From: a virus
Reading direction: 5' to 3' (one strand)
Virus record (IMG/VR): IMGVR_UViG_2864926767_000001
Length of the DNA: 64,000 bases
The notes beneath the pieces were generated by a model. That model was not told where the DNA came from, ran no database searches, and saw nothing but the letters and a program-made list of their open reading frames with translations. Below are positions 4,945 through 35,789 of this stretch, in pieces (the first letter of the stretch is position 1; the number at the start of each line of letters is the position of its first letter). Both the position numbers and the translations under genes were made by a program.

Positions 4945-5331
4945 TTACTTCACGGAATGGTAGGAGTTGCGGAGCTGTTCCATCTTCTGCGCCAGCTCAG
5001 CCGGCGGCGACAGGTGGGGGTAGACAGCAGAGAGCGCCTGGACGGCATCCCAGTTGGTCAGAAGCAACGCATGCTGCGGCATGTAGCCGTTACGCACGTA
5101 GGCCTCGTAAAGTTCTTCGGCGCCTGGGAGCGGAGGAACTGGCGCCCCTGCGTGAGGGCTTGCAGCCTGCAACTGAGCCTGGCCAGCATCGGCCGACGTA
5201 GCTGCTGGGTTTGCCACCGTGATCTCAGGTACAGCCTGGCCCGAAGCTTCCAGATGCGATTCGTTGGCTTCGTCGGCAAAAGCGAAGGCGCTGAACAGCG
5301 CAAACGCTGCGGGGATAAGCGTTTTGAACAT
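4945..5331 (-). CDS. Secreted hypothetical protein
   Basis: Signal peptide MFKTLIPAAFALFSAFAFA; GGAG RBS upstream. Confidence 0.7.
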   Translation of the reverse strand: MFKTLIPAAFALFSAFAFADEANESHLEASGQAVPEITVANPAATSADAGQAQLQAASPHAGAPVPPLPGAEELYEAYVRNGYMPQHALLLTNWDAVQALSAVYPHLSPPAELAQKMEQLRNSYHSVK

Positions 5332-5482
5332 GAGTTTGGGCTCTCCTGCGCACCAGTTTGGCGATTCAGTACCCCAAACCGGCGTGTGAATTAACGATAT
5401 ATTGTCACGCAGGAGGGTCGCCTTCCAGACAATTTGTGTGAAAATGAAGCAATGATCCCTATTCTGAAGCGCGGAGAACAGC

Positions 5483-7951
5483 GTGAGAATTGTCGATAAC
5501 TATCTGACAAATAAGAAGATTCAGCAGTATCGCGACGAGGCTGAAGCCATCCTCGAGTACGCTGAAACCCTAAAGGGGATGGAAGACTGGACGCTCGTCG
5601 TCAACTTCACACAGATCAAGACCGCCCGTAACCGGCCGAATATGCTGCTGGCCTACGCCATCATCACCGAGGTGATCCAGCGCAAGCTCAAACTCTCTCC
5701 TTACGTAGAGCAGATCATGGGTGCCCTGGCGATGGGCGATGGTCATATCGTCGAGATGGCAACCGGAGAAGGTAAGACCCTTGCAGCGGCGTATCCCCTG
5801 GCCTGGCACGCACTCTTCGGACGCAGTCACTGCATTACCGCGAACGATTACTTGGCCCGGCGCGATTCCGAGTTTCTGCACCCGGTCTATCAGACGCTGC
5901 ACCTCAACTGCGACTACCTGCAGGAGAACTTTGGCCGCGAGACGCGCCAACTGTCGTACCGCCGGCAAATCGTATACGGCACTGCAAGCCAGTTCGTCTT
6001 CGACTACCTGCGGGACAACACGGCCCTCGACGTCCAGGATCTCATCCAGCAAGGAAACAACTTCGCCCTGATCGATGAGGCCGACAGCATCCTTATAGAC
6101 GAAGCCAGGACGCCGTTCCTGCTCTCCGGAGAGGTTGGGGCTGAGGATGACCAGTATCAGCTTCTGGACGAGCTTGCACGCAGCCTGGAGGCCGTTGACG
6201 CGCCAATTGACGTGAAGACCAAGCTCGACACCCTCGTCACCCGGCGTACCTCAGATCACGGTGATTGTCTGGTGGACATCCGAGGTCAGGCGGTTAGTCT
6301 CACTGAACGAGGCTTCGCCAAGGCGGAAGCGTTCCTGATTGAACGTGGGATCGTCGCCGCCGGCCGACAGTGGATGCCGGAGGAAGCTCCGGTCTGGGCC
6401 GCCCTTTTCGCCGCACTCAAAGCTCACTACGTCTTCCAGAAAGACAGAGACTACGTGGTCTCTGAGCTCGGAGAAGTCATCACAGTTGACCCTGAAACTG
6501 GTCGTCTCAGTCCTGGTCGCCGCTGGAACCAAGGCATTCACCAGGCCGTGGAGTGCAAGGAAGGCCTCGAGGTCAAAGGCGAAGCCCGAGAGATTGGGCG
6601 TATCGCACTGGCCAGCTACCTGGACGTCTACGATGACGTTGCCGGGATGTCAGGTACGGCCGTCGCCGTGGCCGATGAGCTCCATACCCTCTACGGTCTC
6701 AAAGTGATCCCAATCCCGAGGCACCTCCCCTCCAAGTTGGTACAGCACCCGGACAAGCTATTTGCAACCAAAGAGGCCAAGTTCAACGAGATCGCCGACG
6801 ACGTCGAGGCCATCCACAAGACCACTCAGCCTATCCTAGTTGGCACCGGGTCTATTGAAGATTCTGAGGCCCTATCCAAACTGTTCCATCAGCGCGGCCT
6901 GCACCATCGCGTGCTGAACGCGAAGCAGAATCTACAGGAGGCGCTAATCATCGCTGAGGCTGGAAAACCCAAAGCGATCACGATTGCCACCAACATGGCC
7001 GGACGCGGGACGGACATCCTGCTAGGCGGCTCTGCCGAACATAGCGATGCTGTGTCGGAGCAGCTCGTGCTTGAACAAGGCGGTCTGTTTGTCATCGGCG
7101 CTGAGCGTATGGATTCGGCCAGGCTGGATCAGCAACTTGCTGGTCGTGCCGGCCGACAGGGTGATCCTGGTCACGTGCGATTCTACGCATCTCTCGAGGA
7201 TGCCCTGCTGCGCCAGGCCGGCGCCAAGCACATGGCTCCCCTCTTCCGCTTTGCAGCTAACCCGGACGCCGGCCTCCAGGGTACGACAATCAGTCGGGCT
7301 CTCAAGCGGATTCAGAAGCAGAAGCAGTCCATGACTGCTGACGCGAGACGCGCAGGACTGGCTCAGGATCGCCTGCTAGACGAGCCGCGCGGCATCTTCC
7401 TCACCCAGCGTGATGTGGTTCTGCGCACGGACGCCGGGGACTTGCTGGATGACCTCGACCAGGTCGCCAGGCTGGCTGCTCATCGCCTGATGTCTGTGTA
7501 CAGCGATGCCACGGGCTCAGAGGGGCGCTCGGCTGTCCTTGAAAAGATCAAGCAGTGGCACCTTTCGCCATCCTGGGCTGAGCGTGCCATCCATGATTAC
7601 GAGAAAACTCTAAGCGTGGATGACTATGCTGTCCTGATCAGGGAGTTCGAGCAGTGGCTTTCTTTTGAGCTCACGGCGCGCTCCCGGAGCCTTCTGGAGC
7701 AGGAGCCGAAGGCACTGAAGCAGTCCATGCTCCTTGGCATCGATACCATGTGGCAAAGCATCGTCGAAGAGTCTGACAGAGTAAGGCAGGGCGTTTCGCT
7801 GCAGGCCTACGTCGGCGTGAAACCTCACCTGGCTCTGAAGCAGTCTATCTACCAGATCTTCCACGAGGCCCTGGCGGATGTACCGGTCGCCCAGCTTGAC
7901 TACTTCTTCGAAGCTATCGAGCAACACGCGTTGTCCCTGGAGGCAGCTTGA
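5483..7951 (+). CDS. secA: Preprotein translocase ATPase SecA (short form, no C-terminal Zn tail)
   Basis: EMATGEGKTL, TANDYLARRD, FDYLRDN, DEADSILIDEARTP, VLNAK, ATNMAGRGTDI, QLAGRAGRQGDPG. Confidence 0.95.
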   Translation: MRIVDNYLTNKKIQQYRDEAEAILEYAETLKGMEDWTLVVNFTQIKTARNRPNMLLAYAIITEVIQRKLKLSPYVEQIMGALAMGDGHIVEMATGEGKTLAAAYPLAWHALFGRSHCITANDYLARRDSEFLHPVYQTLHLNCDYLQENFGRETRQLSYRRQIVYGTASQFVFDYLRDNTALDVQDLIQQGNNFALIDEADSILIDEARTPFLLSGEVGAEDDQYQLLDELARSLEAVDAPIDVKTKLDTLVTRRTSDHGDCLVDIRGQAVSLTERGFAKAEAFLIERGIVAAGRQWMPEEAPVWAALFAALKAHYVFQKDRDYVVSELGEVITVDPETGRLSPGRRWNQGIHQAVECKEGLEVKGEAREIGRIALASYLDVYDDVAGMSGTAVAVADELHTLYGLKVIPIPRHLPSKLVQHPDKLFATKEAKFNEIADDVEAIHKTTQPILVGTGSIEDSEALSKLFHQRGLHHRVLNAKQNLQEALIIAEAGKPKAITIATNMAGRGTDILLGGSAEHSDAVSEQLVLEQGGLFVIGAERMDSARLDQQLAGRAGRQGDPGHVRFYASLEDALLRQAGAKHMAPLFRFAANPDAGLQGTTISRALKRIQKQKQSMTADARRAGLAQDRLLDEPRGIFLTQRDVVLRTDAGDLLDDLDQVARLAAHRLMSVYSDATGSEGRSAVLEKIKQWHLSPSWAERAIHDYEKTLSVDDYAVLIREFEQWLSFELTARSRSLLEQEPKALKQSMLLGIDTMWQSIVEESDRVRQGVSLQAYVGVKPHLALKQSIYQIFHEALADVPVAQLDYFFEAIEQHALSLEAA

Positions 7952-8005
7952 TTACAGGCTTATGGCTCTGGATCAGGATCTTCTGACCCCTCGCCCCCAG
8001 AAATG

Positions 8006-8034
8006 AAAAAAGGCCCGCCATTGGCGGGCCTTTT
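8006..8034. terminator. Bidirectional terminator between secA and ftsZ
   Basis: AAAAGGCCCGCCA-T-TGGCGGGCCTTTT. Confidence 0.8.
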
Positions 8035-8050
8035 CGCGACTCAGAAGTTC

Positions 8051-9529
8051 CTAGTCACGAATTCCTTCACCCTGTTGGCGGCGAAGGAAAGCCGGGATAT
8101 CCAGGTAGTCGAGGTCGTCATGCTGGTTTTGCTGCTGCGGCTGCTGGGTTCTCTCAGCGGGAAGCAACCTCCGATTGTCGAGTTCAACCGGGCGGCTGGC
8201 AGCCATGCGAGTACCTTCTTGCTCAGCGTACTCGAACTCTTCGCGGGACTGACGAGTGTTGCGCGGCTCGTACTGGCGCTCCTGGAACTCGCGCTGATGC
8301 AGGTCGCGGGTACCACCTACCGGACGCTGCACGCCTTGCTCAGACTGGAAGCCGTGGCGCAGGATGCGATGATCTTGAGCCGCCGGACGAGCTGCAGATA
8401 CACCCAGGTCGTCATGTTCACGACGATTGTCGAACTGACGCTCTTGAGTCATAGCAGGGCGCAGTTCAGCAACTTGAGGACGCTGAACCGGATTACGGCT
8501 AACTACCGGCTCCTGCTTCGGCTCTGCGGCGCGAAGAGGCTGAGCGGCCTGCTTCATTTCCGCCTGGTACTGGGAATCGCCCAGACCGGTGATGACTACA
8601 GTCACAGTCATCTCTTCACCCAGGTCAGGATCGATGACAGTACCGAACTTCATACGAGCGTCAGGCGATGCGAATTCTTCGATGATTGCACCGACGGCCG
8701 CGTACTCGTCCAGCGTCAGATCCTGGTTGGAGGAGATATTGACGAGGATGCCTTTGGCACCCTGGAGATTGGTGTCACGCAGCAGCGGGTGGAACAGGGC
8801 GGCTTCAGTGGCTTTTTGTGCACGATCAGCACCGCTAGCACGGCCTTCACCCATAACAGCTTGGCCGGCCTTTTCCATCACAGCCTTCACGTCGGCGAAG
8901 TCGACGTTGATCATGCCAGGGCGCTTGATGATGTCGGAGATGCCGCGAACCGAGCTGCACAGAACGTCATTGGAGTGAGCGAACGCCTCCAGCAACGAGC
9001 ACTTCCCGGCCATCTCTTGGATCAGCTTCTCATTCTTCACCACGATCAAGGTGTCGACGTATTTTTCGAGCTCTTTCAGGCCTTCCAGTGCGTAGGCCAT
9101 GCGCTTACGACCTTCGAACATGAACGGCAGGGTCACCACGCCTACGGTGAGGATGCCCTTCTCTTTAGCGATTTGCGCGATTACCGGGGACGCGCCAGTA
9201 CCGGTGCCGCCACCCAGGCCAGTTGCGATGAAGAGCATGTCAGCGCCATGCATGGCATCTGCAAGCTGGCTGCGGTCTTCCAGGGCCGCTTCCTGGCCCC
9301 TGGCCGGATCGGCGCCAGCGCCCAGACCTGAGGTGGTGTTAGCGCCGAGCTGGAGGACGCTCTTGGCCTTGGTGTTCTTCAGTGCCTGAGAATCGGTGTT
9401 GGCGACGATGAACTCGACACCCTCGATGTTGTTCTCGCACATGTGATCCACGGCGTTACCGCCGCCCCCACCCACGCCAATCACCTTGATGATTGCGCCG
9501 CCATCGCCGCGATTACTCGTTTCGAACAT
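8051..9529 (-). CDS. ftsZ: Cell division GTPase FtsZ with a long linker
   Basis: IKVIGVGGGGGNAV, GGGTGTGA tubulin signature, T7 loop NVDFADV, C-terminal DYLDIPAFLRRQ. The ATG at 9529 has GGAG at 6-nt spacing. Confidence 0.96.
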   Translation of the reverse strand: MFETSNRGDGGAIIKVIGVGGGGGNAVDHMCENNIEGVEFIVANTDSQALKNTKAKSVLQLGANTTSGLGAGADPARGQEAALEDRSQLADAMHGADMLFIATGLGGGTGTGASPVIAQIAKEKGILTVGVVTLPFMFEGRKRMAYALEGLKELEKYVDTLIVVKNEKLIQEMAGKCSLLEAFAHSNDVLCSSVRGISDIIKRPGMINVDFADVKAVMEKAGQAVMGEGRASGADRAQKATEAALFHPLLRDTNLQGAKGILVNISSNQDLTLDEYAAVGAIIEEFASPDARMKFGTVIDPDLGEEMTVTVVITGLGDSQYQAEMKQAAQPLRAAEPKQEPVVSRNPVQRPQVAELRPAMTQERQFDNRREHDDLGVSAARPAAQDHRILRHGFQSEQGVQRPVGGTRDLHQREFQERQYEPRNTRQSREEFEYAEQEGTRMAASRPVELDNRRLLPAERTQQPQQQNQHDDLDYLDIPAFLRRQQGEGIRD

Positions 9530-9683
9530 GTGCATCTCCGTAATTTACAATTTCGCAGTAAGCGCCGGGCGGCGCTTGGGTAAGGTTGCCGAGGTGGTAT
9601 GGCAAGGTGTCGCAATACTGCCAATATTCAGCTGCTCTAGCAATACGCTTGGCCGCTAAAAATGCGCCTTTTCTAATAAATTG

Positions 9684-10199: not shown

Positions 10200-10236
10200 T
10201 TCAGTGTCCTTTCAGTGGAGAAGCTTTGGAGAAGCT

Positions 10237-11559
10237 TCAAAAGGCGGGAGTGGCCGGCTCGTATGCGGTCGCGGCCACCAGGGCCTTACCGCTGGGCTTC
10301 ACCGCCTCATCGAGCACATAGGTGCGGTTCAGATCGCGGTCGATCTCCAGCACGTTGCCGAGAGGTTTACCGAAGGTGTGGAAGGTGCTGAGCAGCGTGT
10401 CATTCTTGCTCTCGCCCTTACGCACGTCAGCGTTACGCATAGCGACTGGGGACACCAGGTAGGCGCTCTGCTGCTCGAAGTTCATGTACGGATAGGTGTG
10501 GAACAGTCGATCCACTCCGGACTTAAGCTGTTTGAGCTTGCCTGCCAGGTAGTCCTTCTGGAAGTTGGCATTTCCAACCGGGCCGCAGTTGGTGCGCTGC
10601 GTGGGGATGATCTCGGCTTTCATGCCGTTCCTGACCATGTAGGTGAACCAGGAAGCGTTCTTGGAGAGGAACTCATTCCAAGTCGCCTCCCCGTTGATCA
10701 CCCCACCACCGTTGGTGTAGTTGTACCTGGTGTTCAGGTTCTTGACGCAGGAAAGCTCGACAATACGAGTGCCCCTCTCCTCTCGGTAAGGGCGAATGAT
10801 TACGCCGCCATACATCCCGTCGAACATGTTGGAGTCGAGCAACTCGATGATCTGGCGCCTGGCGTTCGCCTGGTTGACCAAGTCCAGTTCCTCAATGCGC
10901 CGGTACTGGACATCCACACCGATGAACCAGTGTTTCTTGCCCATGGCCAGCAGCTCCCTGGTGAGGTCACTGACCTCCACCTGGATCTGGATCAACGGCA
11001 CCCCATTCACCGAAACCTGCTTGTCTGCGACGGCCTTGGTGACAATGGCGTTGAGCTTCTGCAGGCGAAGCTTTTTCGTGGCGTAGGCTGAATCTGCCGT
11101 CGGGAAGATCGTGTTGATCTCTAGGTAGCCCGTGCAGATCTTGGGCTTCTTCAGCTTGGGGTTGGTTTTCGACTTAAGCACCGACATCCAGGTGGCTTTG
11201 AGGACATTGTTGTCCTTGTCGATGAACTCGACCTGCTCGGCGACAAAGGCCCCGCCAGACACGGTGCCGGGGGCGTTGTCGTCCGTGGCGAAGCACGGAT
11301 TCTTCGCGCGGTCGTCATCATCAGCCAGGTCTTCAAGGCTGGGGACGGTCTTGTCAGCACGGTTCTTGGCTTCATCGATGAAGCGTTGCGGAACCTCAAG
11401 AGTCAGCTTGAACGGAGCGCCAGCCTGATCAACGCCCAGCATGACGCAATCCTGAGGGGTCTTCCCGATCTGGTAGCTGCGGGGGTAACCCACGAAACCA
11501 GTCGTCAGGCCCTGCTTCAAGGCTTCGATACTGCCAAGTGGCGGTTTCATGTCGAGCAC
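10237..11559 (-). CDS. Hypothetical protein, paralog of 36607..38487
   Basis: 440-aa ORF; its N-terminal ~110 aa aligns by eye with 36607..38487 (PRSY, PS...AKN.C.A...N, A.W..VL). Confidence 0.8.
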   Translation of the reverse strand: MLDMKPPLGSIEALKQGLTTGFVGYPRSYQIGKTPQDCVMLGVDQAGAPFKLTLEVPQRFIDEAKNRADKTVPSLEDLADDDDRAKNPCFATDDNAPGTVSGGAFVAEQVEFIDKDNNVLKATWMSVLKSKTNPKLKKPKICTGYLEINTIFPTADSAYATKKLRLQKLNAIVTKAVADKQVSVNGVPLIQIQVEVSDLTRELLAMGKKHWFIGVDVQYRRIEELDLVNQANARRQIIELLDSNMFDGMYGGVIIRPYREERGTRIVELSCVKNLNTRYNYTNGGGVINGEATWNEFLSKNASWFTYMVRNGMKAEIIPTQRTNCGPVGNANFQKDYLAGKLKQLKSGVDRLFHTYPYMNFEQQSAYLVSPVAMRNADVRKGESKNDTLLSTFHTFGKPLGNVLEIDRDLNRTYVLDEAVKPSGKALVAATAYEPATPAF

Positions 11560-11779
11560 TCCGTAGAATCACAATTATCTAAGTATTGCACGCGATCTTC
11601 GGACTGAACAAACGCTAAACCCTGTTTCCATGCGGATTTACCGATAAATTGCCAGGCTGTACCTGGGATCACGGTAAACGGACGGCCCGACCGCACCGGG
11701 CGTTCCCAGGATCACGGTTAGAGCGTCTCGGAATGTACCTCTAATCCCGGTCTGCCCCTTCCCTGGGGCGGCTCAGCTG

Positions 11780-14308
11780 TCAGTCCTCGGTACGAATGCG
11801 CGCCATACGCGCCAGCATCTGCTCTAGGGCATCGGAAACGCCCTCTGCAGTGAGTTTGTTCGGCTGAGGGTCTACCGGGTAGTTGATCGTCTCATCGATG
11901 ATCTCAAGCCCCCTGCGAGCCTCCTCCATGGCTTCCAGCTCACTACGGCCGGCTGCCTTCTCAATCTCAAGCAGTTGCTTGATCGGCATGGCACGGTCTT
12001 TCTGGTCTGCCGACAACACCTCGGGATAGACCTTGAAGCTCTCTTTCACCGAGTCGCTCATCAAGTCGCTGAGTGACTTGAAGACATCGTCCGCCTCGTC
12101 GAGGATCGATGTGTCGTACTCCTCATCATCCTCCTCGTGGAGGAATGGGAGGTTCCCGAGCACTGTGTCCATCTCCTGGTCATAGCGCTTGGCGGACGGC
12201 CTTGCCGGCGGCAAATCGTCATCCGAGTCGTCTTCCATGATGGGTGCCTGACGCGGCGCCGGGCGTACTGCCGGCGCTGCTGAGACCCCGTTCGCTCTGC
12301 CCTTCAGAGAGGCGACGAACTCATCGTCCAGCAGCTTTTCCTTGTGCTCCATCATGCCAAACGCGATCTTGGCCGCCATGTCTGGCTCCTGAGCCCTGGA
12401 CACAGCCACGTCGTAGGCGTTGAACAAGGCCTGCAGGTTCCTGTCCAGGTCGACGGGCTTGGATCGGCGGCTATCAGCCTGGCTGTCATCGAACAGCTTG
12501 GTGATGTTGTTCCTCGAATCACGGAGCGTTTTGACCATGTCTCGGCTTGGGCCGTTGACCATCAGCATCCGATTGATACGGTACTCAGGCGATTTCTCCG
12601 GGTCAGTGAAGTACAGGCTCACCCTGGCCAGCTTGTCGCCGAAGATGACGTGGGCCTGGCCTGGCTTCTGGTCAACCAGGTCGCGGACGTTGATCCGTTT
12701 TTTACGCTCGGACTTCGACTGGTTATTATCCGCATATCCAGGGAACATCCCTTTCGAAACCTCGTAACCAGCCGAACTTGCTGTTTCGGCTTCACCAGCA
12801 CGCTCGATTGCCAAGTCCAAAGTTTCTTTGGCATCTTCAAGTTTCATGAAGATTTTAATGTTGGTGTTTGCAACAATGGATTTGGCTTCTTTTTCATCTG
12901 AGCGCTGGAAGGATGGGAAGTCCTGGCCAGCGAAAACAACAGAAATACCAAGGCTTCGGGCCTGGGCCGCAACAACCGAGAAGCCCTTGACGCTGTAGTA
13001 GCCGTATTCATCAAGTATTAGCATGAAGGGTACGTCAGAGTTTGTCGGCTTAGCGTCGATTACTTCTGCGTGAGAACCTTCTACTTTTTCACCAAGTGCA
13101 GGTGCAAGTGCACTTCGAACACCGGCCACAACCAACTTTCCGAGACCTGCTAGTGCGTCCGGCTCTTTCTCGAGGGCCGGCAACATAACAAATAGGATTC
13201 GGCGATTGTAAACAAGGTCTTTGTAGTCCACCTCCCCTCTCGGTGCATTGAAGATGTGAGAGTAAGTTGCAGACAATTCTTGCAGCACCTCGGTTAGCTG
13301 CATTGTCAAATAGTTGTGTTGTTCGTAACACTTGGCGTTAAGTTCGCCTTGGCGTGCTTCTTTCTCCTGGTAACCAGGAAGTTCGAGGAGATACTTATTA
13401 AGAAGAGAGATATTTTTCTCTGGAATATCTGCGCGCTGAGTTAGGTCTAGAATCCTATCCAAAGGCATGTTGTCACGCAGTACACCAACGTCCAAGTTGA
13501 TCTCGCCAGTGTCTCTCAGATACACCAGGCAATCGAGCAAAGCCAGCAGCAGCGCGTTCGCGCGGCCTTTCCACATGTCGTCGCCGCCCCCGTCGCGCAT
13601 CAGCGATGCAACAAGGGACTGAATTTGTTTCGCAGGGCCTAGGGCAAACGGGTTAGTTGTGTTGGAAAGCCGCGAACCATCATTAATGCTCTTGTCTGTT
13701 TTGGAGCCTGTTAGATAGTTGATTACAAGTAGATCGTCCTCTCGACCAAGCCTTCTGACCATCGAGAAAACGAGGCCGAAGACGGTAGTATCCCCCTTCC
13801 CGTCTACATACATTACGCCAGACCCGAGAACCAGTGCCTGGTAGAAAAGAGATAGCAGGAAGCGGGTTTTCCCCGAGCCTGTCGAGCCAAATACCAGCAT
13901 ATGGGTACGAGCATCGTCGTTGCTCACCCAGAACGATTCGTTAGTTACCAGATCATTGCCGATCAGAATGATGCCGTCACCAATCGGAACGCTCTTGTAT
14001 TTGTCCTTTCCTTTCTTACCTTTCACGCGGACTTGTTTGGTCTCTAGTGGGTTGAAAGGATGGCGATGCGGGTACTTCCTGACGTGCCGCTTGGCGTACA
14101 GGTAGGCCATGAGCGCGACGAGAATGAATATGTCGCTAGAGGTGGCGTAAGGACTGAACGGAAGTACGAAAGCCATAAATCCAAGGAAGCAGACAACGAA
14201 GCCGCCGATCTCAGCAAAGAGGCTCCTGATTCTGTACTTCAGCGGCCTGATCTCACGCTGCAAAAGTGTGGGGTCGAGGTCAGCGTTTTTCGTTACGCCA
14301 TGTACCAT
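11780..14308 (-). CDS. dotL: Type IVB secretion coupling ATPase DotL/IcmO (TrbC-like)
   Basis: N-terminal LDPTLLQR as in IcmO, TM segments, RTHMLVFGSTGSGKT, YVDGKGD, ILDEYGYY, AQARSLG, FAGQD, ANTNIKIFMKLED. Confidence 0.92.
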   Translation of the reverse strand: MVHGVTKNADLDPTLLQREIRPLKYRIRSLFAEIGGFVVCFLGFMAFVLPFSPYATSSDIFILVALMAYLYAKRHVRKYPHRHPFNPLETKQVRVKGKKGKDKYKSVPIGDGIILIGNDLVTNESFWVSNDDARTHMLVFGSTGSGKTRFLLSLFYQALVLGSGVMYVDGKGDTTVFGLVFSMVRRLGREDDLLVINYLTGSKTDKSINDGSRLSNTTNPFALGPAKQIQSLVASLMRDGGGDDMWKGRANALLLALLDCLVYLRDTGEINLDVGVLRDNMPLDRILDLTQRADIPEKNISLLNKYLLELPGYQEKEARQGELNAKCYEQHNYLTMQLTEVLQELSATYSHIFNAPRGEVDYKDLVYNRRILFVMLPALEKEPDALAGLGKLVVAGVRSALAPALGEKVEGSHAEVIDAKPTNSDVPFMLILDEYGYYSVKGFSVVAAQARSLGISVVFAGQDFPSFQRSDEKEAKSIVANTNIKIFMKLEDAKETLDLAIERAGEAETASSAGYEVSKGMFPGYADNNQSKSERKKRINVRDLVDQKPGQAHVIFGDKLARVSLYFTDPEKSPEYRINRMLMVNGPSRDMVKTLRDSRNNITKLFDDSQADSRRSKPVDLDRNLQALFNAYDVAVSRAQEPDMAAKIAFGMMEHKEKLLDDEFVASLKGRANGVSAAPAVRPAPRQAPIMEDDSDDDLPPARPSAKRYDQEMDTVLGNLPFLHEEDDEEYDTSILDEADDVFKSLSDLMSDSVKESFKVYPEVLSADQKDRAMPIKQLLEIEKAAGRSELEAMEEARRGLEIIDETINYPVDPQPNKLTAEGVSDALEQMLARMARIRTED

Positions 14309-16092: not shown

Positions 16093-16644
16093 CTAGTCCC
16101 CTGACTGCTGACGCAACCACGCCAGCGTGTTCGATTCGTCGTAGTCATCGACGTGTTGTTCTTCTTCTGGCCCGAACAGCGATCCCTCGCTCAAGGTCAC
16201 CGTGTTTTCGGGTACGACCGGCTCATTTACCTCGAAAATGCGGCCTTCAATCACACTTGCTTGTTCCATCGGAGTAATCGAAGCTTGTGAAGGCCTCTCC
16301 CAGCCCTTTCCTGGGCCTGTCTCAACTTTCTGCGGCTGCGCCACTGCTTTTGCTGTCGATGGCCTCGGTGGCGCTTCTGGAGGCCTTCCTGGCCCTACTT
16401 CACGTGCTGACTTCGGCTTCACCTTGCCCCTAAGGTCTTCCAGGCGCCTGAGATCCGGGTTTCGTGCCCGGATGAACGCTTCCTCACCGCCCTCCTGCCT
16501 TGCCATAACCCTGAAACCGATCAGGGCCATCTGCGCCAGCTCCATCGATTGCCGGGTGCGCCCTTCGATGCCTTCAAGATGGAGGATCAATTCCAGGTGC
16601 AGCGGGTCTTCGTCGTAGAGGTTTACAACCCTCCGGTGTCTCAT
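16093..16644 (-). CDS. Putative ParR/StbB-like adaptor
   Basis: ATGA-coupled directly downstream of parM; compact N-terminal beta-alpha-alpha-like segment, then a disordered acidic tail. Confidence 0.55.
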   Translation of the reverse strand: MRHRRVVNLYDEDPLHLELILHLEGIEGRTRQSMELAQMALIGFRVMARQEGGEEAFIRARNPDLRRLEDLRGKVKPKSAREVGPGRPPEAPPRPSTAKAVAQPQKVETGPGKGWERPSQASITPMEQASVIEGRIFEVNEPVVPENTVTLSEGSLFGPEEEQHVDDYDESNTLAWLRQQSGD

Positions 16645-17660
16645 GCCGCTACGCCACCCATCTTGTATTCCGCGAACTTCAGCATCCCCAGGGCGTTCTC
16701 GAAGACAGGGTCTTCGGCCATCACCTGGTTTCTGAACCACCCCTGCAGGTAACGCTCCAGGTACTGGCTGGTGCCGCCCAGGAATGTCACTTGCTCGATG
16801 TCATGCGACTTCTGCAGACACGACTTGATCGTCGAGCGGATCTTGTTCACCACAGCCTTGTTTGCCTCTTCGACCAAGGCGCGGACGTCATGGGTCTCAC
16901 CCCACAGGCGAATCAGACCAGTACGCAGGGCCTCATCGACCTGCTCGTCAGTTACCTCGATGCCTTCGAAGCGGTGGAATAGACGCTCTCGAATGTCCTT
17001 TACGATGTTGATCATCCCGATGTCTTCGGTCGTGGAGCGGTCACCGTCGAGCTCCCAGTCACGGATCACGGCGATGTCCAGCGTGCGGCCGCCGATATCG
17101 ATCAGGGCCATGCGGCGCTTCACGCGCTCCTTGTCGAAGTCCAGCTTTCCTGATGGCTGGCGAACCAGAATCTGGTTTACCCAGGCAGCGATGCCTTCGG
17201 ACATAACATCGTGCCGGGAAATAATTGGCGGGATATATCCATCAGCGCCGGCAACATCCCCTTTCATGAGGTTTTTGCGCTTCCTGGAAATTACCGCCTT
17301 ATTTGGCGTATTCCCTATGTAATAACGCTTCAGCGGAAGTCCGGATACACCATGAATTTCAACATTGCTGGGCAGGTCGAACTGGCGCAGTGCGTGGGCC
17401 ACGATGACCCTGTTCTGAGCGCTGAACGGATACTCGTCGTAAGCCGTGAACTCGGAGGTGCCGATGTCACCGACCGTGAAGGGCCCGTCCTCTGTGTTGT
17501 ACACCCAGTTGCCGCTGGTGGAGCCGCTGATGGAAATCTTGTTGAAGACACCGCTGGCCGCGCGCGACGGGATGACGAGCCTGGAACCATTCGAGAGTAC
17601 GATCTTTGTGTCGCGGTGGCCGTCATCAATACCAGCGAACAATACTTGTTTTTGTTCCAT
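16641..17660 (-). CDS. parM: Actin-like ParM/StbA plasmid segregation ATPase
   Basis: GIDDGHRDTK (phosphate 1), SGLP, SEGIAA, IDIGGRTLD (phosphate 2), FLGG (adenosine), PVFENALG. Confidence 0.9.
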   Translation of the reverse strand: MEQKQVLFAGIDDGHRDTKIVLSNGSRLVIPSRAASGVFNKISISGSTSGNWVYNTEDGPFTVGDIGTSEFTAYDEYPFSAQNRVIVAHALRQFDLPSNVEIHGVSGLPLKRYYIGNTPNKAVISRKRKNLMKGDVAGADGYIPPIISRHDVMSEGIAAWVNQILVRQPSGKLDFDKERVKRRMALIDIGGRTLDIAVIRDWELDGDRSTTEDIGMINIVKDIRERLFHRFEGIEVTDEQVDEALRTGLIRLWGETHDVRALVEEANKAVVNKIRSTIKSCLQKSHDIEQVTFLGGTSQYLERYLQGWFRNQVMAEDPVFENALGMLKFAEYKMGGVAA

Positions 17661-20811: not shown

Positions 20812-20855
20812 CTGTACCTCAAATCACGGCTAGATCACCGTGATTTGAGGTACAG
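20812..20855. repeat. Perfect 18-bp inverted repeat with 8-nt spacer (two copies of the dispersed motif)
   Basis: CTGTACCTCAAATCACGG-CTAGATCA-CCGTGATTTGAGGTACAG. Confidence 0.9.
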
Positions 20856-20912: not shown

Positions 20913-23564
<2,652 letters not shown>

Positions 23565-23687
23565 GCTCAACCCTTTTGTGTAAGCGCTGCGACCATCGCA
23601 GGCGCCCTAAGCCCTGCCCGGAAATCCAGGCGAATCATCTCCGCAATATATCACTAAAGGAGTCTCGCTCAGCAACCGCTCAAACCC

Positions 23688-26748: not shown

Positions 26749-26752
26749 CGAC

Positions 26753-28638: not shown

Positions 28639-28709
28639 GTCGTGGACTCTCTCGGAAGTTCCGGGATTCTCTATTTGGATTTGCCATTCTAGTCAATAAA
28701 GGCAATAAA

Positions 28710-30815
28710 GTGATAGATCCCAAAGACGGACTTCGGATAACTCTCAAGAAATACTTTGGCTTTGACGAATTGCGGCCAGGCCAAGTGCCCATCGTCGACT
28801 CGGTGCTCAACGGTCGCGATATCCTGGCGATCTTGAAGACATCTGGGGGCAAAAGCCTCTGCTACCAGTTGCCGGCGATTCATCTTGGCGGAACCACGAT
28901 TGTTATCAGTCCGCTCATTTCTTTGATGAAAGACCAAGTTGAAGCCCTCGATAAAAAGGGGATTTCAGCAACATTTGCCAACTCGTCAATTCCTGCCGGA
29001 GAAATGAGACTTCGGTATGAGGGACTTTCCAAAGGGAAGTACACCCTCTTTTACATTTCCCCAGAGCGGATGAAAGACCCAGAGTTCCTCGGGGCTCTGA
29101 TCCGGTCACCTGTTCGCGTCTTCGCAGTGGACGAAGCTCACTGCGCCTCCCAATGGGGTCACAACTTCCGCCCTGCCTATGCCAAGGTCGGTGAGTACCT
29201 GGACGAGATCGAGGACTACCTGCAGCGTCCGATCCAGCGCCTGGCGTTCACGGCGACCGCCAACAGCAAGGTGCAGGAAGACATCGTGCGAATGCTGCGC
29301 CTCAAGGCCCCTGAGGTGCACATCCAGGACTTCGACCGGGACAACATCACCTATTCGGTCATCCCTTGCGCCAACACCAACCGCTCGGACGATGTCTTGC
29401 GATTGGTAATGGAACACCCCGAAGACTGCATCATCGTCTACTGCGTGACGGTCAAAGAGGTGGAGAAGGTCTGCCACTACCTGCAGGATTTCGGGGTTCA
29501 AGCGAACCGTTACCACGGAAAGCTCCCCACCGACGAAAAGAACCAGATCCAGGAAGACTTCCTCAACGACAAGATTCGCGTCCTGGTGGCCACCAGCGCC
29601 TTTGGAATGGGTGTCGACAAACCCAACGTGCGCTTGGTAATTCACCCCCAGATGCCGGGCTCAGTCGAGGCGTACTCCCAGGAGTCGGGCCGCGCTGGAC
29701 GTGATGGACTGCCGGCGAAAGCCATCCTGCTCTATCACCCGAATGACCGATCCATCCACGCTTACTTCATCGGGGTGACCAACCCCAATGGCGCCAAGAT
29801 CGAGCCCATCAAGCGGGTTATTGGAAAGATCCTGGTGAATGGGCCCGCGCCACTGAGCTTCAAGCACATCAGCCTGCAGGCCAGCCGGCAGCAGTCGATC
29901 ATCAACTCCGTCCTGGAGGGCCTCAACAGCTCCCAGAGCGACATCAAGATGGTCGACGTCCAGGCCACCGTTGGCATGCTTGTGAACCAGGGTGAACTGG
30001 AGGTCTTCGAGGGGGTGTACACCCTCGCCAATTGGCAGGATGACTCCGACTACTACTGGATCGAGGAAGTACGCAAGAACGACTGGAGCAAGCTCAGTGC
30101 CATGTGCAACTGGTGCGAGACTAACCTCTGCCGGCGCTGGACGATGCTCCGCTACTTCGACGAGCGTAAACCCATCTACCGCTGTGGCATGTGTGACAAC
30201 TGCCAGCGGGAATCACTCTCTCAGCTCGCAATAGGGCCGCTAGAGAAGACGGTACGCACCAGCACCCTGATCAACCTCGCAAAGAACCTGCAGCCTCTGG
30301 TGGGCGCTGAGGGCAGCCGCTGGCTGCACGTATTGCTGGGGACACTCTCTCCCGACGAGCTCACGCCAGGAGAGCAGGAAGTGTTCGGACGATTCGCCTG
30401 GAACGCTGTCTCAGACATTCGCCGTTGGCGGGACATGCTGGTCGAGCGGGAGATCCTCACCCAGGACAACGCCCTCACCGAGCAAGGGCACCTCTGGATT
30501 GACGGCAAACTGGTGATCGAGCCACGTTCTGTACCTCAGATCACGGTTGAAACAGGCCGCATCGTTTCAATCCAGGAGGTTGAGCAACGCATGAAGGTGC
30601 TCAAGGCCTGGCGTAAAGCAACCGCTTACCGCGAAGACTGCGCCGAGATCCAGATTTGCTCCGAAGCCCAGCTCAAGAAGATCGTCGTTCTGGACGATGT
30701 TACGGAGTCCAGCCTGACCGGCGCCGGGTTTAACCCTTCTTGGCTCCGAAAGTATGCTGGAGGGGTGACCTTAGCCATCAGCAAAATTCCGAAGGCCGAA
30801 GATGTATCAGCGTAA
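28710..30815 (+). CDS. recQ: ATP-dependent DNA helicase RecQ
   Basis: GGKSLCYQLPA, SPLISLMKDQV, DEAHCASQWGHNFRP, ATSAFGMGVDK, QESGRAGRDG, CRR...CGMCDNC zinc site, HRDC-like C-terminus. Confidence 0.93.
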   Translation: MIDPKDGLRITLKKYFGFDELRPGQVPIVDSVLNGRDILAILKTSGGKSLCYQLPAIHLGGTTIVISPLISLMKDQVEALDKKGISATFANSSIPAGEMRLRYEGLSKGKYTLFYISPERMKDPEFLGALIRSPVRVFAVDEAHCASQWGHNFRPAYAKVGEYLDEIEDYLQRPIQRLAFTATANSKVQEDIVRMLRLKAPEVHIQDFDRDNITYSVIPCANTNRSDDVLRLVMEHPEDCIIVYCVTVKEVEKVCHYLQDFGVQANRYHGKLPTDEKNQIQEDFLNDKIRVLVATSAFGMGVDKPNVRLVIHPQMPGSVEAYSQESGRAGRDGLPAKAILLYHPNDRSIHAYFIGVTNPNGAKIEPIKRVIGKILVNGPAPLSFKHISLQASRQQSIINSVLEGLNSSQSDIKMVDVQATVGMLVNQGELEVFEGVYTLANWQDDSDYYWIEEVRKNDWSKLSAMCNWCETNLCRRWTMLRYFDERKPIYRCGMCDNCQRESLSQLAIGPLEKTVRTSTLINLAKNLQPLVGAEGSRWLHVLLGTLSPDELTPGEQEVFGRFAWNAVSDIRRWRDMLVEREILTQDNALTEQGHLWIDGKLVIEPRSVPQITVETGRIVSIQEVEQRMKVLKAWRKATAYREDCAEIQICSEAQLKKIVVLDDVTESSLTGAGFNPSWLRKYAGGVTLAISKIPKAEDVSA

Positions 30816-31913: not shown

Positions 31914-32619
31914 GAACTCGCCCTGTCTCGACGCGATCCGTATAGGCCCCGTCTGGGCCGACGAAATCAACGAGCCTGGCCTTCCAGTAGGCACTTTGCG
32001 CATACGGGGGCAGACACTGGCTGAACGGTAGGCCGGTGGTTTCACGTAGCCGGACACGCTGAGTGCTGCTGAGCTCGTAGTAGTACGAGGAAGGCCCCTT
32101 GCCCATCTTGCATACCAGGATGGGCTTTCCATCCGGGCCGGCCGGGGGCAGACCCTTCAGCATCCGTGCGGATGAGGTGTGGACGTCAGAATTCGCCGGC
32201 AGGCCGGCAACGACCACATACCCGTTGTTCATGATCGCCTTGGGGAGGCTGTAACTGGCAGCAACAGGTCGGTCGAGGTTGAACAGACCATCCTGGGGAA
32301 CTACCGCACCATTGATGGCGCTCCGGGCGAACTGAGGCTGGAAAACGATGTAGTGATCAGCCATTTCGATAAGATTCGTCCCTGCCCTTGCCCAGGCCTG
32401 GAGATCATTACCGGCTGATTCTTTGTTACTCCACTCGGAGAACACCGAAGGGGAAGCCCCCACGTTGGGGTCGAGCCTTTTCTGCAAAATTGCAAGAGAG
32501 CTCCTGTCGGTTGGCCTGGCGACGAACTCCTCCAGGGCAGACTTGAATACGGGGTTGGCAACCGCCGATGTCGAGATCGAAACCAAGATGAGCGCCAGCA
32601 CGCTCAGAGGCTTTCTCAC
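31906..32619 (-). CDS. Secreted protein with a degenerate LHH (HNH/EndoVII) nuclease-like domain
   Basis: Signal peptide; RMLKGLPPAGPDGKPI....EL....YWKARL matches the LHH-domain frame, but the LHH histidines are replaced (LVCK). Confidence 0.6.
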   Translation of the reverse strand: MRKPLSVLALILVSISTSAVANPVFKSALEEFVARPTDRSSLAILQKRLDPNVGASPSVFSEWSNKESAGNDLQAWARAGTNLIEMADHYIVFQPQFARSAINGAVVPQDGLFNLDRPVAASYSLPKAIMNNGYVVVAGLPANSDVHTSSARMLKGLPPAGPDGKPILVCKMGKGPSSYYYELSSTQRVRLRETTGLPFSQCLPPYAQSAYWKARLVDFVGPDGAYTDRVETGRVHD

Positions 32620-33089
32620 TTCTTCTTCGCCTCCTGCTGCTGCTCGTCAATGTCCACCTGGCTCGTAACCCGGTGAAGACTGCGATACAGGCGCATCATA
32701 TTGTCGAATATGATCTTCTCCTGGATCACGTAGATCTTCTTCCCGTCATCAACCGCAACGCTGTGCTTTCCGATGATGATGACTTCCTGAATGTCCTTGA
32801 GCTTGATGGCTTCGTTGAAGCTACGCACAGGAAGGTCAGGGAAGCTGCTGGAGAGATGTGTTGCGGCCGGCAAGCGCGCTAGCGCCGAGCTCTTGCCGAG
32901 GCGAGCCTTGGTCTTGCCCGGTAGCCAAGACAGGTAGGCTTGGAACAGATGGCCGCCAGCCGGCCCTACCCCCAGGTAGTGCACGTCACCGCGCGATTCA
33001 TCAACCTCGATGAATGCCATCTTGATCTTGTTTAGGCTTGTCTCAATGTCCTCATAGACCAGGCCTTCAACTTCCATCGGAAGTGTCAT
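32616..33089 (-). CDS. Hypothetical protein
   Basis: GGAG RBS before the ATG at 33089; GTGA overlap with the next gene. Confidence 0.6.
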   Translation of the reverse strand: MTLPMEVEGLVYEDIETSLNKIKMAFIEVDESRGDVHYLGVGPAGGHLFQAYLSWLPGKTKARLGKSSALARLPAATHLSSSFPDLPVRSFNEAIKLKDIQEVIIIGKHSVAVDDGKKIYVIQEKIIFDNMMRLYRSLHRVTSQVDIDEQQQEAKKK

Positions 33090-33198
33090 TGGAATTCTCC
33101 GAACGGCCCGGCAACTAAAAAGCCAAGCGTGAACTAATGCGATCTTAAACAACAAACCGCAAAAGTTCTACACTTGGCCTTTTGTACGAAATTGGAGA

Positions 33199-34083
33199 TT
33201 AATGCTCCAATTCACCGCCCAGGTTTTCAACCATGGTGGTCAGCAGCTCTGAGACGTACTTGGAGATCAGGATCATGTCTGCCGCAAGCAGCTCCAGCGG
33301 CTCCCCGGTGCCGGCATCATGGTCTTCGAATGCGGCATCGGTGAGTTTGAAGCCCTTGAAGACAAAGTCTTCGGTCAGGCTGAAATCGACCTTCTTGTCG
33401 TGTTGCAGCTTGATCTGACTGATGACATAGCCTTCCGTGAGGTATTCGCGGAGGCGCTCGTCATCCAGGTCGTTCTTGTTGTATTTGATCTGGCTGCCAT
33501 CGCGCTCCAGGATACAGGAGTCGCCGAACAGCAGGTCTTTGGGCATCTGCGCGTGCTGCATCCAGGTAGTGATGCAGGTCTTCACGTTGTGCTGCGGACG
33601 CATCGGATAGATGACGTTTGAGGACATGCCGTCGCGGATGGCCGAAACCATCACATCAGCGTTCTTAGCGCTGCCCGTGTCGATGATCAGCAGCTTGTTG
33701 ATGTTGTCGATGTAGGCCCAGAGGTCTTTTGCCCTTGGCGCCGCCTGGTCAGTGAGGCGTTTGGTGATTTCCTCTTTGATGTCCCGGCGCTCGCTGCTCT
33801 TGATCTTCTCACCACCGCGCTCGAGCTTGAGGATCTGGATACGCTTATCCAGCTCAGTCTTTACGGCACCAGGGTCAGCTCGACGGGTTTCGGTGCGTAG
33901 GCAGAATAGGAAGCACTTATTCTGCTCGAAGACGCGCTGCTCAAGGCCGAAGATCTGGGCAAAGCCCTGAGTCTCATGCTGCTTGTCCCTGATCGGCTGG
34001 AATGCCTTCGACTCCAGGTGCTCCTGGAATGCCTCAACGTCGATGGGATCGATGCGGTAGGCGTTGATGTTTGAGAATTTCAT
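33199..34083 (-). CDS. rdgC: Recombination-associated protein RdgC
   Basis: MKFSNINAYR (F.NL..YR), F.P......GF, ERRDIKEEI...L..A, LLIIDTGSAK.AD, F.LTEDF..K. Confidence 0.85.
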   Translation of the reverse strand: MKFSNINAYRIDPIDVEAFQEHLESKAFQPIRDKQHETQGFAQIFGLEQRVFEQNKCFLFCLRTETRRADPGAVKTELDKRIQILKLERGGEKIKSSERRDIKEEITKRLTDQAAPRAKDLWAYIDNINKLLIIDTGSAKNADVMVSAIRDGMSSNVIYPMRPQHNVKTCITTWMQHAQMPKDLLFGDSCILERDGSQIKYNKNDLDDERLREYLTEGYVISQIKLQHDKKVDFSLTEDFVFKGFKLTDAAFEDHDAGTGEPLELLAADMILISKYVSELLTTMVENLGGELEH

Positions 34084-34181
34084 TGTAAAGGAATCGCTCC
34101 ATCTCCGTGATCTTGGGTACGGCAGCCCGTCGAGGCGACCGAAGGGGACGTGATAATTACAGATTAATTGACAGAGTGGAA

Positions 34182-34934
34182 GTGAATCCGCAGACTCCCT
34201 GCCTGCTCCTTTTCCATTATATTGTCGGTCTCGTTGTGTCACCTTCCGATCCCGTAGCCAGGCGCGAACAGCTAGCCATCTGGACGGCCCACCAGCCGTT
34301 GGCGAAGGCTCTCGTCCGGGAGAAGTGTGCCTTCAACCCCAGTATCGCCAAGGATGCGCTCCAGGAGGTGCAGCTTGCCCTCTGGGAGGCTACCCTCGAG
34401 CGGGATGTAGAGCTGGGCGACGCCTTCGCGGCCTTTGCCCACAAGCGAATGAGCCGGCGGCTCATCCACTTCCTCAGATACCTCGTCGAGGATAAGCCCA
34501 AGCTCTCAAGCCGCGAGCGTGAGCTGATCAAAGCCATTCGAACACGCGTGCGCGCCGGCACCGCACTCAACACCCTGATCATCAACGAACTCAGCCAAGA
34601 GCATGGTGTGGGCATGTTCAGGATCGTTGTCTTGCTCAATACCTGGGTGCACAACATGTCGGCGTACACGGCTGATGCGCACGCGACTCTCGATAGGCTT
34701 TCATCGGAAGAGCCGGATTTCGATGTGGATGATGAGCACCAACTCCTTGAGTTGGAGCTGGCCTTAGCGAAGCTCAACGAACGTGAGCTTGAGATTATCC
34801 AGGGCCGTTACCTGCAAGACCCCAATTCGACACTGGCTGAACTGGCGGCGCGCTTCAGCATTACCCCCCAGCGCGTTCGGCAGATCGAGGTGGCAGCCAT
34901 TGGGAAGCTAAGATCGCTGCTTCCCGCCGGCTGA
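34182..34934 (+). CDS. Alternative sigma-70-family factor (RpoH-like region 4)
   Basis: Region 2-like DALQEVQLALWEA...FAAFA; region 4 LNERELEIIQGRYL...TLAELAARFSITPQRVRQIE..AIGKLR; start uncertain. Confidence 0.8.
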   Translation: MNPQTPCLLLFHYIVGLVVSPSDPVARREQLAIWTAHQPLAKALVREKCAFNPSIAKDALQEVQLALWEATLERDVELGDAFAAFAHKRMSRRLIHFLRYLVEDKPKLSSRERELIKAIRTRVRAGTALNTLIINELSQEHGVGMFRIVVLLNTWVHNMSAYTADAHATLDRLSSEEPDFDVDDEHQLLELELALAKLNERELEIIQGRYLQDPNSTLAELAARFSITPQRVRQIEVAAIGKLRSLLPAG

Positions 34935-34943
34935 GACGGCGGC

Positions 34944-35789
34944 CTATCGCCCTTTCCCGAAAATGCTCAGGATCTCTTCTTTCGAGGCCTGACGATCAGT
35001 ATCCTCCTCCTGTACCTCGGATCGCGGTTCTTCCAGTGAAGACCCGTCATAGAGCCATGTGCGGTACATGGCCTTGAACCGCTCTTCCAGTTCACGAGTA
35101 CTTTTACCGTTCTCGCGTTTCTCAAAGCCCCCTGCCCGACCAATGGCCTTGCGCACCAGCGGGTGGAGGTCTGTCCCCGAATGGGCGCTGATTGCCGAGA
35201 ACCATGCCTCTTCGATGATTGGCACGCCCCTGCGGCTGGCCTGAACGGCATCCAGGAACTGGGTGGAGTTTGGCGCAAACACGCGGAAGGTTGGGCAGTT
35301 GGTGATCGCGTGTTCTGCCTGCCGGATTTCCTCTGGAGTAGCAGACATGCTTTCCAGGTCGGCGATCCACACGCGTTCCCTTACCAGGGACTCGATGGAC
35401 ATTTCTGTTTTCCAGCGGGCGTAGCAAACCCCGAATTTGACATCCACGTGGGCCCAGGCCTGGCGGACGCTCTTGGCGTATTCGTTGTACGGATAACACT
35501 GCACCGTACCCGCAAGCTGAACCACCGTTTCCATACTGGGAGGAAATTTTACGAACGGGGCCAACCCGGTTCCCATCCACTCTCTCAGCTGTATCAGGGT
35601 CTCAAGCGTAATCCCTGCGAAAACCAGCTCAGCAACGAGATTCGGCAGGTAGGTGTTGCTCACCCCGAGCTGATCCTCCACCAACTTGATGTTGTACCTG
35701 GTGGTGAAGTGCTTGTAGAGCTTGGCGGCTTCAGCCAACAGCTTGGGGTAGAGTTCTTTCTTTTGCTGTTCGTCCTGCATGTTCGCCAC
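34944..35789 (-). CDS. Lambda-P-like replication protein (putative helicase loader)
   Basis: W.....F.P...QF.....G.P..EEAW..A....HPLV..A....G.FE.R......RF..MY pattern recalls replication protein P homologs. Confidence 0.55.
   Translation of the reverse strand: MANMQDEQQKKELYPKLLAEAAKLYKHFTTRYNIKLVEDQLGVSNTYLPNLVAELVFAGITLETLIQLREWMGTGLAPFVKFPPSMETVVQLAGTVQCYPYNEYAKSVRQAWAHVDVKFGVCYARWKTEMSIESLVRERVWIADLESMSATPEEIRQAEHAITNCPTFRVFAPNSTQFLDAVQASRRGVPIIEEAWFSAISAHSGTDLHPLVRKAIGRAGGFEKRENGKSTRELEERFKAMYRTWLYDGSSLEEPRSEVQEEDTDRQASKEEILSIFGKGR

Follow-up and report, generated by a model that had tools for sequence, protein, structure and literature searches.

Which protein reads a short asymmetric DNA motif that is written again and again into unrelated genes, and what are its many copies for? 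The question arises in a 64,000-nucleotide stretch of DNA, IMG/VR virus record IMGVR_UViG_2864926767_000001 (hereafter the window, meaning the whole stretch), in which the motif Y-GTACCT-NRR-ATCACGG-T is present in 11–14 copies at 4.9–35 kb. An earlier note, made from the letters of the window alone, had called the consensus undescribed and had proposed binding sites of a replicon-encoded organiser, possibly connected with an FtsZ homologue, or alternatively the true parS or a global regulator site. The window corresponds to C1:112247-176246 in a 7.58-Mb assembly, where C1 is a contig of 449,926 bp with 57.5% GC, compared with ~66% for the large contigs (chromosome), and C1 is therefore megaplasmid DNA in a member of a Pseudomonas aeruginosa-group genus. 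Here, we report that the motif is very probably the binding site (iteron) of the plasmid's own TrfA-family initiator, whose gene stands left of the window together with a 22-copy array of the same site. Rather than being undescribed in kind, the feature belongs to a known type, that of initiator-binding sites away from the origin, and is an unusually extensive example of it.

The initiator gene (C1:104584-105708, minus strand, 374 aa) lies 6.5–7.7 kb left of the window and is the genome's one member of the TrfA family (PF07042, E 6e-12; 45.6 bits, with 22 as the cut-off). A 1.2-kb non-coding gap directly upstream of it is occupied by the array, in which 22 copies of the motif (at ≤3 mismatches) fall within 890 bp (C1:105834-106722, 5.5–6.4 kb left of the window), the nearest of them 126 bp from the start of the rep gene. 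The part adjoining the rep promoter holds 15 strong copies (21–28.5 bits) at irregular spacing, three of them inverted, the middle is a 90-bp AT-rich gap (38–40% GC versus 57% overall) and the far part consists of seven weaker copies (16–23 bits) with starts exactly 21 bp apart (C1:106576-106702). Iterons of theta replicons of the TrfA, RepE, Pi and RctB type are asymmetric sites of 17–22 bp that cluster by the initiator gene, with a phasing of ~21–22 bp and an AT-rich unwinding region. Judged from these sequence features, the array is built like an iteron origin that has a control region next to it, and the irregular group of 15 copies, which lies between rep and the phased run, resembles a copy-control locus. 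An AlphaFold model of the 374-aa protein, built with 24 homologues (pLDDT 73.8), matches domains 2–3 of Vibrio cholerae RctB with an E value of 2.6e-6, and also many RepE54-iteron and Rep-iteron-DUE (DNA unwinding element) complexes with a probability of 1.0 and a template-modelling (TM) score by target of ~0.6. A family-profile sequence search of solved structures returned nothing relevant; the fold match came from the structure search. Clustering, phasing by an AT-rich stretch, a two-winged-helix initiator and a site that co-varies with it (see below) are all found, as in the iterons of double-winged-helix theta replicons.

The copies scattered outside the array, which we call orphan iterons, carry the same recognition sequence. 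A position matrix trained on the 22 array copies alone (maximum possible score 28.9 bits) scores them at up to 28.7 bits, and at ≥20 bits it finds 19 copies outside the array on C1 and none in the remaining 7.1 Mb. All 33 exact motif matches of the genome lie on C1, and the other contigs with 57% GC, 559 kb in total, have no match even at 14 bits. In the window, this matrix, trained elsewhere, recovers every one of the 11 copies of the earlier note, at 17.9–28.7 bits, and adds three weaker ones at 4940-4955 (plus strand), 6642-6657 (minus) and 16200-16215 (minus). The motif GTWCCYNRRATCRCGG, with ≤1 mismatch, has 11 matches in the window against 0.14 expected (100 dinucleotide shuffles, maximum 2). 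That most ATCACGG heptamers in 1–35 kb carry a GTWCC box at the fixed spacing, as had been noticed, is borne out by 9 of 11, compared with 0 of 4 in 35–64 kb. The latter count agrees with the statement that no copy is found from 35.1 to 64 kb, but this is only a 35-kb gap and the field continues beyond it: sites resume 6–31 kb past the right end of the window, and eight more sites and the 22-copy array lie to its left. When 33 further genomes of the genus were scanned for single iterons, one match turned up, judged to be chance, and a pattern scan for two iterons 10–40 bp apart in public metagenome and genome collections, with the own genome left out, gave none.

The orphan iterons are in all likelihood kept by selection, acting on the DNA. 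Among the 30 sites of ≥16 bits on C1, 23 are intragenic, in five of the six frames and on both strands, 13 of them on the same strand as the gene and 10 antisense, at relative gene positions of 0.11–0.98 and with no bias to gene starts. When synonymous codons were shuffled within each of the 483 open reading frames (ORFs) of C1, 0.58 ± 0.74 sites of ≥20 bits were obtained (maximum 3) versus 14 observed, and 0.03 of ≥24 bits versus 9 observed. Matches at background level in such a shuffle, the outcome that the earlier note had set against its own proposal, are thus not what was found, and its argument that copies in unrelated genes, different frames and both strands reflect conservation at the DNA level is upheld by the five frames and by the shuffle. 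Ten sites lie in the frame GTA-CCT-NNN-ATC-ACG (V-P-x-I-T), and the motif encodes every one of the seven V-P-x-I-T peptides found in the ORFs of C1, versus 0.18 expected from a codon usage in which GTA makes up 13% of the Val codons and CCT 22% of the Pro codons; it is thus the DNA site that dictates the peptide. Read in the sixth frame, the consensus would give CCG-TGA, and the sole site there (35012-35027) has ATCGCGG, which abolishes the TGA stop. The flanks of the copies are 26.5% identical, which is the random level, and the information content is zero outside 18 bp; the copies are therefore not pieces of a mobile repeat. Dispersed repeats such as repetitive extragenic palindromes (REP), miniature inverted-repeat transposable elements (MITE) or insertion sequence (IS) ends are ruled out by the random flanks, the 18-bp limit and the 23 of 30 sites inside ORFs.

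The copies in the window, with their scores from the array-trained matrix, are as follows.

4940..4955, plus strand: weak copy resembling an orphan iteron, 16.3 bits, found by the matrix scan in the interval between two minus-strand ORFs

5217..5232, minus strand: orphan iteron of consensus grade, 28.4 bits, in the overlapping ORFs 4840-5394 (plus) and 4945-5331 (minus); reads V-P-E-I-T in the minus ORF

6246..6261, plus strand: orphan iteron, 26.8 bits, in the SecA-like gene 5483-7951 (plus)

6642..6657, minus strand: orphan iteron with the variant sequence GTACCTGACATCCCGG, 21.9 bits, on the antisense strand of the SecA-like gene

11659..11750, plus strand: three co-oriented copies, 27.5, 17.9 and 22.5 bits, offset by 43 and 33 bp, within the 220 bp that separate the coupling-protein gene from a 440-aa gene

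12509..12524, plus strand: orphan iteron, 25.1 bits, antisense in the coupling-protein (TraG/DotL-like) gene 11780-14308 (minus)

16200..16215, minus strand: weak copy, 15.8 bits, with ATC changed to AAC, in ORF 16093-16740 (minus)

20814..20853, both strands: two consensus iterons in perfect inverted arrangement with an 8-bp spacer, scoring 27.5 and 28.7 bits and flanked by nrdA (20913-23570, minus) and recJ (18618-20744, minus)

30531..30546, plus strand: orphan iteron, 28.0 bits, in the RecQ gene 28710-30815 (plus); reads V-P-Q-I-T

34105..34120, minus strand: orphan iteron, 19.2 bits, in the RdgC gene 33199-34242 (minus)

35012..35027, plus strand: orphan iteron with ATCGCGG for ATCACGG, 24.5 bits, antisense in ORF 34944-35789 (minus)

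The gene labels given previously (SecA-like, TraG/DotL-type coupling protein, RecQ and RdgC) are correct. The inverted pair at 20814-20853 consists of two top-scoring orphan iterons, which immediately behind nrdA form a perfect inverted repeat of 16 bp around a loop of 8 bp. A hairpin with a stem of 16–17 bp is possible as RNA or DNA, and no U-run follows it; the pair might be both an initiator site and a transcription barrier.

On the contig as a whole, the region C1 84–208 kb holds 26 of the 30 sites of ≥16 bits, around the array (106 kb) and the sign change of the GC skew. A scan of C1 and the rest of the assembly, of the kind that the earlier note had proposed, finds sites that are replicon-specific and mostly confined to one region, apart from a gap and an outlying cluster that are considered below. 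Orphan sites reach 20–100 kb, and as far as 211 kb, from the array. The cumulative GC skew of C1 falls to ~115 kb, is flat to ~205 kb and rises thereafter, so that it gives only a broad transition at 115–205 kb, and coding-strand bias is uninformative on the origin. The further 559 kb of plasmid-like 57% GC is spread over 22 contigs (C18, C32, C36, C40, C43, C49 and 16 smaller ones); the low-GC complement therefore amounts to ~1 Mb and C1 is not a closed replicon, which makes replichore symmetry unusable for placing the origin. Around the array the sites have no polarity, with 14 plus and 10 minus to the right and 5 plus and 3 minus to the left.

The same design, spelled in other letters, is found in related plasmids. 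The nearest relative of the initiator in a collection of 5.8 billion proteins is a 99%-identical copy on one 64-kb soil contig, and the next is 45% identical. A megablast search of the origin region against plasmids gave no match. This soil-metagenome relative (a 64,146-bp public contig; run X1) has an initiator with 99% and a neighbouring protein with 97% identity, and shares ~10% of 31-mers; judged by shared words, its DNA is ~93% identical. Homologous initiators with 37–45% identity are encoded by 124 Pseudomonas megaplasmids of the IncP-2/pBT2436 family and by three other Pseudomonadaceae genomes. In every case examined (pBT2436, pPniHBP1 and the genomes G010, G181 and G226) an array stands upstream of the initiator gene, built from sites with the same 5-4-7 layout and different letters.

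This plasmid: GTWCC-YNRR-ATCRCGG

IncP-2 (pBT2436, pPniHBP1, G010): CGYWCA-N4-AWTCCGG

G181: GYWCA-NRAA-ACTACGG

G226: GTACC-YNNN-YCTTCGW

The four versions of the site accompany four initiator lineages, and each motif is confined to its own plasmid. Phased runs of 21 bp also occur in the arrays of pPniHBP1 and G181. Scattered copies number ~10 in pBT2436, ~9 each in pPniHBP1 and G010, 5 in G226 and 1 on the short G181 contig, with none for reversed-pattern controls in all replicons that have scattered copies. The site of G226 (C18:88.8-91.4 kb; L019) has the left half GTACCT, as in this plasmid, and a different right half (YCTTCGWT), which suggests that each half-site is recognised by a domain of its own and that these domains change independently of each other.

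Conservation in related plasmids, which the earlier note had named as a check, can be followed in the IncP-2 pair. Around the module, pBT2436 and pPniHBP1 are only 61–70% identical, and at homologous places (inside an integrase gene, upstream of that gene and inside a CdaR-like gene) their orphan sites are identical in 20–22 of 23 bases with flanks that are 67–70% identical, so the positions of these sites have been kept. Between the orphan sites of this plasmid and those of IncP-2 there is no positional homology. C1 and pBT2436 have 27 of 483 ORFs in common, including an A24 peptidase, an integrase and the TrfA-like gene, which makes the module a shared cassette in otherwise unrelated megaplasmids. 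The TrfA-like gene is the sole gene conserved beside the array across the lineages. In the IncP-2/pBT2436 family the module lies at 156.1–158.3 kb of pBT2436 (L011:2700-4900) and at L012:3100-4925 of pPniHBP1, and comprises the TrfA-like gene, mostly annotated as 'hypothetical protein', a 2-kb upstream array of ~20–25 iterons and ~10 orphan copies in the vicinity. The accepted initiator of IncP-2 is repP-2A, a gene other than the TrfA-like one (PMC8969547; PMC7971254), and the TrfA-like locus has the look of a second replicon or control module that has gone unrecognised.

In the mechanism that we propose, the iteron would be a 16–18 bp asymmetric site for a monomeric double-winged-helix initiator, the 374-aa TrfA-family protein. 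The orphan iterons would be single, often consensus-grade sites that were put into coding sequence through codon choice and kept by selection, and their concentration in ~120 kb around the sign change of the GC skew would mark the origin-proximal domain. Binding of the initiator at these sites may restrain initiation by either of two routes. By titration, origin-proximal sites would double soon after firing and take up free Rep; by handcuffing or looping, orphan sites would pair with the origin array. Either route could give once-per-cycle control for a single-copy megaplasmid, and strong isolated sites set against weak phased origin sites would be expected to act as a sink that fills before the origin does. 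Two features of out-of-origin titration sites are found here, namely the same recognition sequence as in the array and an origin-proximal placement. Our confidence is evenly poised on whether negative control of initiation by titration or handcuffing is the main role of the orphan iterons. For the explanation as a whole, in which the motif is the initiator's iteron and selectively kept orphan copies restrain initiation near the origin, we lean slightly in favour. How very large single-copy plasmids limit replication to once per cycle is poorly understood. A true megaplasmid would here have a V. cholerae-like device on a larger scale, with ~20–30 consensus-grade sites in genes, and the design recurs with other letters in the TrfA-like module of IncP-2 multidrug-resistance megaplasmids, for which the literature consulted centres on another rep gene. 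The sites are a concrete set for studying copy control, incompatibility and stability of megaplasmids.

Comparable sites are known from smaller replicons and from chromosomes. At P1 incA, F incC, the extra iterons of RK2 oriV and the alpha and beta sites of R6K, copy number is lowered by titration and handcuffing. As in these loci, which are bound by the same Rep as the origin, the extra sites here have the sequence of the origin iteron; the known loci are non-coding and no more than a few kb from the origin, whereas the orphan sites lie 20–100 kb (and 211 kb) away in unrelated genes. DnaA sites outside the origin delay initiation, and some also act as operators. The likeness to Escherichia coli datA, to dispersed DnaA boxes and to the Bacillus subtilis clusters is that initiator sites stand outside the origin with a bias towards it. 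DnaA is an AAA+ protein of a different initiator family and its boxes are only 9 bp long, so that chance copies are frequent, whereas at ~25 bits every copy here needs explaining. In B. subtilis, oriC-proximal clusters of DnaA boxes likewise delay initiation (PMC3245932). With the sites of ParB (parS), MatP (matS), SlmA and Noc, the organising factors, the motif shares restriction to a region and tolerance inside genes; those sites are palindromic and dimer-bound and none stands in a phased array at a rep promoter, whereas the motif here is asymmetric.

The closest parallel is V. cholerae chromosome II, where RctB binds five iterons scattered through 74 kb near oriII. These sites inhibit replication, titration being the most likely route, and their early duplication has been proposed to prevent re-initiation (PMC3937223, Baek and Chattoraj 2014). 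Origin-proximal titration iterons of this kind were called 'chromosome-like' and were not known from plasmids (PMC3937223). Further iteron-like RctB sites have been found by chromatin immunoprecipitation sequencing (ChIP-seq), and RctB forms loops at ori2 (PMC11711613). Both systems have single copies of the origin iteron outside the origin over tens of kb near it, and both have a plasmid-type double-winged-helix initiator, RctB being the best structural match of the 374-aa protein. Unlike the five sites of V. cholerae, ~20–30 are present here, mostly in coding sequence, and the protein is of the TrfA family and on a megaplasmid. No 39-mer or crtS-like site is seen here, and a Dam GATC is not strictly contained in the site.

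Several observations weigh against this explanation. DnaA boxes are unconvincing, as the array region has TTATCCACA matches at two mismatches only, in a total not above chance, three of which cluster in the AT-rich gap. The array stands at the left edge of the skew transition and off its centre, and a simple distance-from-origin rule explains neither the site-free 35-kb gap (C1 148–182 kb), which holds parAB, a parS-like array and primase genes, nor three sites at C1 317–319 kb. In pBT2436, repP-2A lies ~158 kb from the TrfA-like module and a weak GC skew points to repP-2A; because this is also the accepted initiator of IncP-2, the TrfA-like module may there be an auxiliary replicon, may not be primarily replicative or may have been co-opted for another role. 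On C1 no repP-2A homologue and no Rep_3 gene was found, C1 being incomplete and other initiator families not having been searched exhaustively. Finally, with 7 of 30 sites intergenic in a sequence with 12% non-coding DNA, some intergenic sites, such as the triple at 11.66–11.75 kb and the inverted pair at 20.81–20.85 kb, may also be operators. The coexistence with repP-2A in the clinically important IncP-2 plasmids and the patchy, ungraded distribution of sites would fit a checkpoint or organiser, beside or instead of a conventional replicon, made up of the TrfA-like protein and ~50 sites (array plus orphans). It could take the form of a timing relay of the crtS type, with the initiator being reset as the fork passes one orphan site after another, or of a scaffold that compacts the origin domain; we regard such a system as fairly unlikely.

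The initiator might instead act mainly as a transcription factor at these sites, so that plasmid genes for DNA metabolism and transfer would be expressed according to how much of it is present, in the way of DnaA at nrd and other promoters. The intergenic share of sites is about twice that expected. The three co-oriented copies stand 98–193 bp upstream of the 440-aa gene, the perfect inverted pair lies 70–110 bp upstream of recJ and just after nrdA, and several IncP-2 orphan sites are just upstream of genes for a response regulator, an integrase and a CdaR-like regulator. The genes that bear or flank the sites are largely for replication and repair (ligase, topoisomerase, UvrD, RecQ, RecJ, NrdA and RdgC), but the whole region is rich in DNA-metabolism genes, so this association is not specific, and the 23 of 30 sites that lie inside genes are on either strand, at positions throughout the gene and without preference for its start. 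We therefore consider a mainly transcriptional role fairly unlikely, and a global regulator site is possible as a secondary role of the initiator. An organiser would use the sites as anchors, to fold the origin-proximal domain, to hold it together or to pair sister plasmids, through the TrfA-like protein in a role unrelated to initiation or through another plasmid protein. The restriction of the sites to one part of ~1 Mb of plasmid-like DNA is in line with this, as are the presence of a different accepted initiator beside the IncP-2 module and the ability of initiators of this fold to bridge distant sites, for example in the RctB loops at ori2 (PMC11711613). Against it, the array has the hallmarks of an origin in its 21-bp phasing, AT-rich gap and position at the rep promoter, no initiator besides the TrfA-like one can be recognised on C1, no second candidate binder is conserved beside the array across lineages and there is no link to FtsZ, which together make an organiser unlikely. 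Of the earlier proposal of a replicon-encoded organiser, the DNA-level, replicon-specific sites within genes stand, and they are almost certainly bound by a replicon-encoded protein; the organising function is not supported, and the site is best read as the iteron of the TrfA-family initiator.

The unexplained gap and the one outlier cluster could also be had if the scattered copies were functionless by-products that arose by chance or by copying from the array. However, they are in 24-fold to 300-fold excess over the codon-preserving shuffle, they lack the flanking homology that a copying process would leave, and the same pattern with different letters is present in at least four lineages; in the IncP-2 plasmids positions are conserved between flanks that are 67–70% identical, and lower substitution in the sites than at synonymous positions is indicated. 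By-products are thus very unlikely. Beside rep, C1:103607-104491 (L009:11361-12245, minus strand) encodes a 294-aa protein with a sub-threshold Pfam match to Ter/Tus (E 1.4e-3, 18.2 bits against a cut-off of 22), and the nearest structural neighbour of its poor model is the Tus (Ter) cluster at a TM score of 0.30. A plasmid-borne Tus-like gene beside the initiator would be unusual in Pseudomonas, and the evidence for one is weak. Ter-like fork barriers bound by this protein would, like the sites here, be asymmetric, dispersed and tolerated in genes, and its hints of Tus likeness are found right beside rep. Both hints are below significance, none of the other lineages with arrays and orphan sites has the Tus-like gene, and the lack of orientation polarity around the array or relative to genes argues against Ter-like barriers and against polar guides of the KOPS or Chi kind. 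For parS, a separate palindrome adjoins parAB. We consider fork barriers, polar guides and parS together extremely unlikely.

The parAB genes, which are not part of the motif system, have their own array in the window.

40764-41717, minus strand: ParB, in parAB (40764-42585)

41707-42585, minus strand: ParA, in parAB (40764-42585)

42.7–45.6 kb (42700-45553): array in which the 17-bp palindrome TTCTGCAWWWTGCAGAA is repeated ~16 times, over 3.5 kb of largely non-coding DNA by parA/parB

The TTCTGCAWWWTGCAGAA array beside parAB is likely the real centromere. The presence of this palindrome array rules out that the motif is the true parS, the motif itself being asymmetric and clustered beside rep. 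The centromere-like region (42700-45553) has the lowest GC (49–52%) and the strongest local GC skew of the window. Within it, 12-bp tandem repeats resembling GCTGGAGCAGGA occur in at least 8 units at 43751-43894; they may be non-coding or belong to a small ORF, in which they would specify a repeat rich in Gly, Ala and Glu.

The FtsZ homologue (8051-9535, minus strand) is real, and nothing links the sites to it or to nucleoid occlusion. Two further proteins had been put forward as possible binders, the 440-aa protein (10237..11559) and a 368-aa protein (58376..59479); there is no evidence for either and neither has a family match, and for the 440-aa protein a protein atlas gave no informative neighbour. 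A lambda O/P-like reading of the ORFs at 34944-36503 has no Pfam or PHROG support. Besides the FtsZ homologue, a SecA-like ATPase (5483-7951, plus strand) and a DnaG primase (60147-62027, plus strand) are plasmid-encoded, and the flanks encode an NAD-dependent ligase, a topoisomerase, UvrD, RecQ, RecJ, NrdA and an Mfd-like protein, a DNA-metabolism gene set that is unusually complete for a plasmid.

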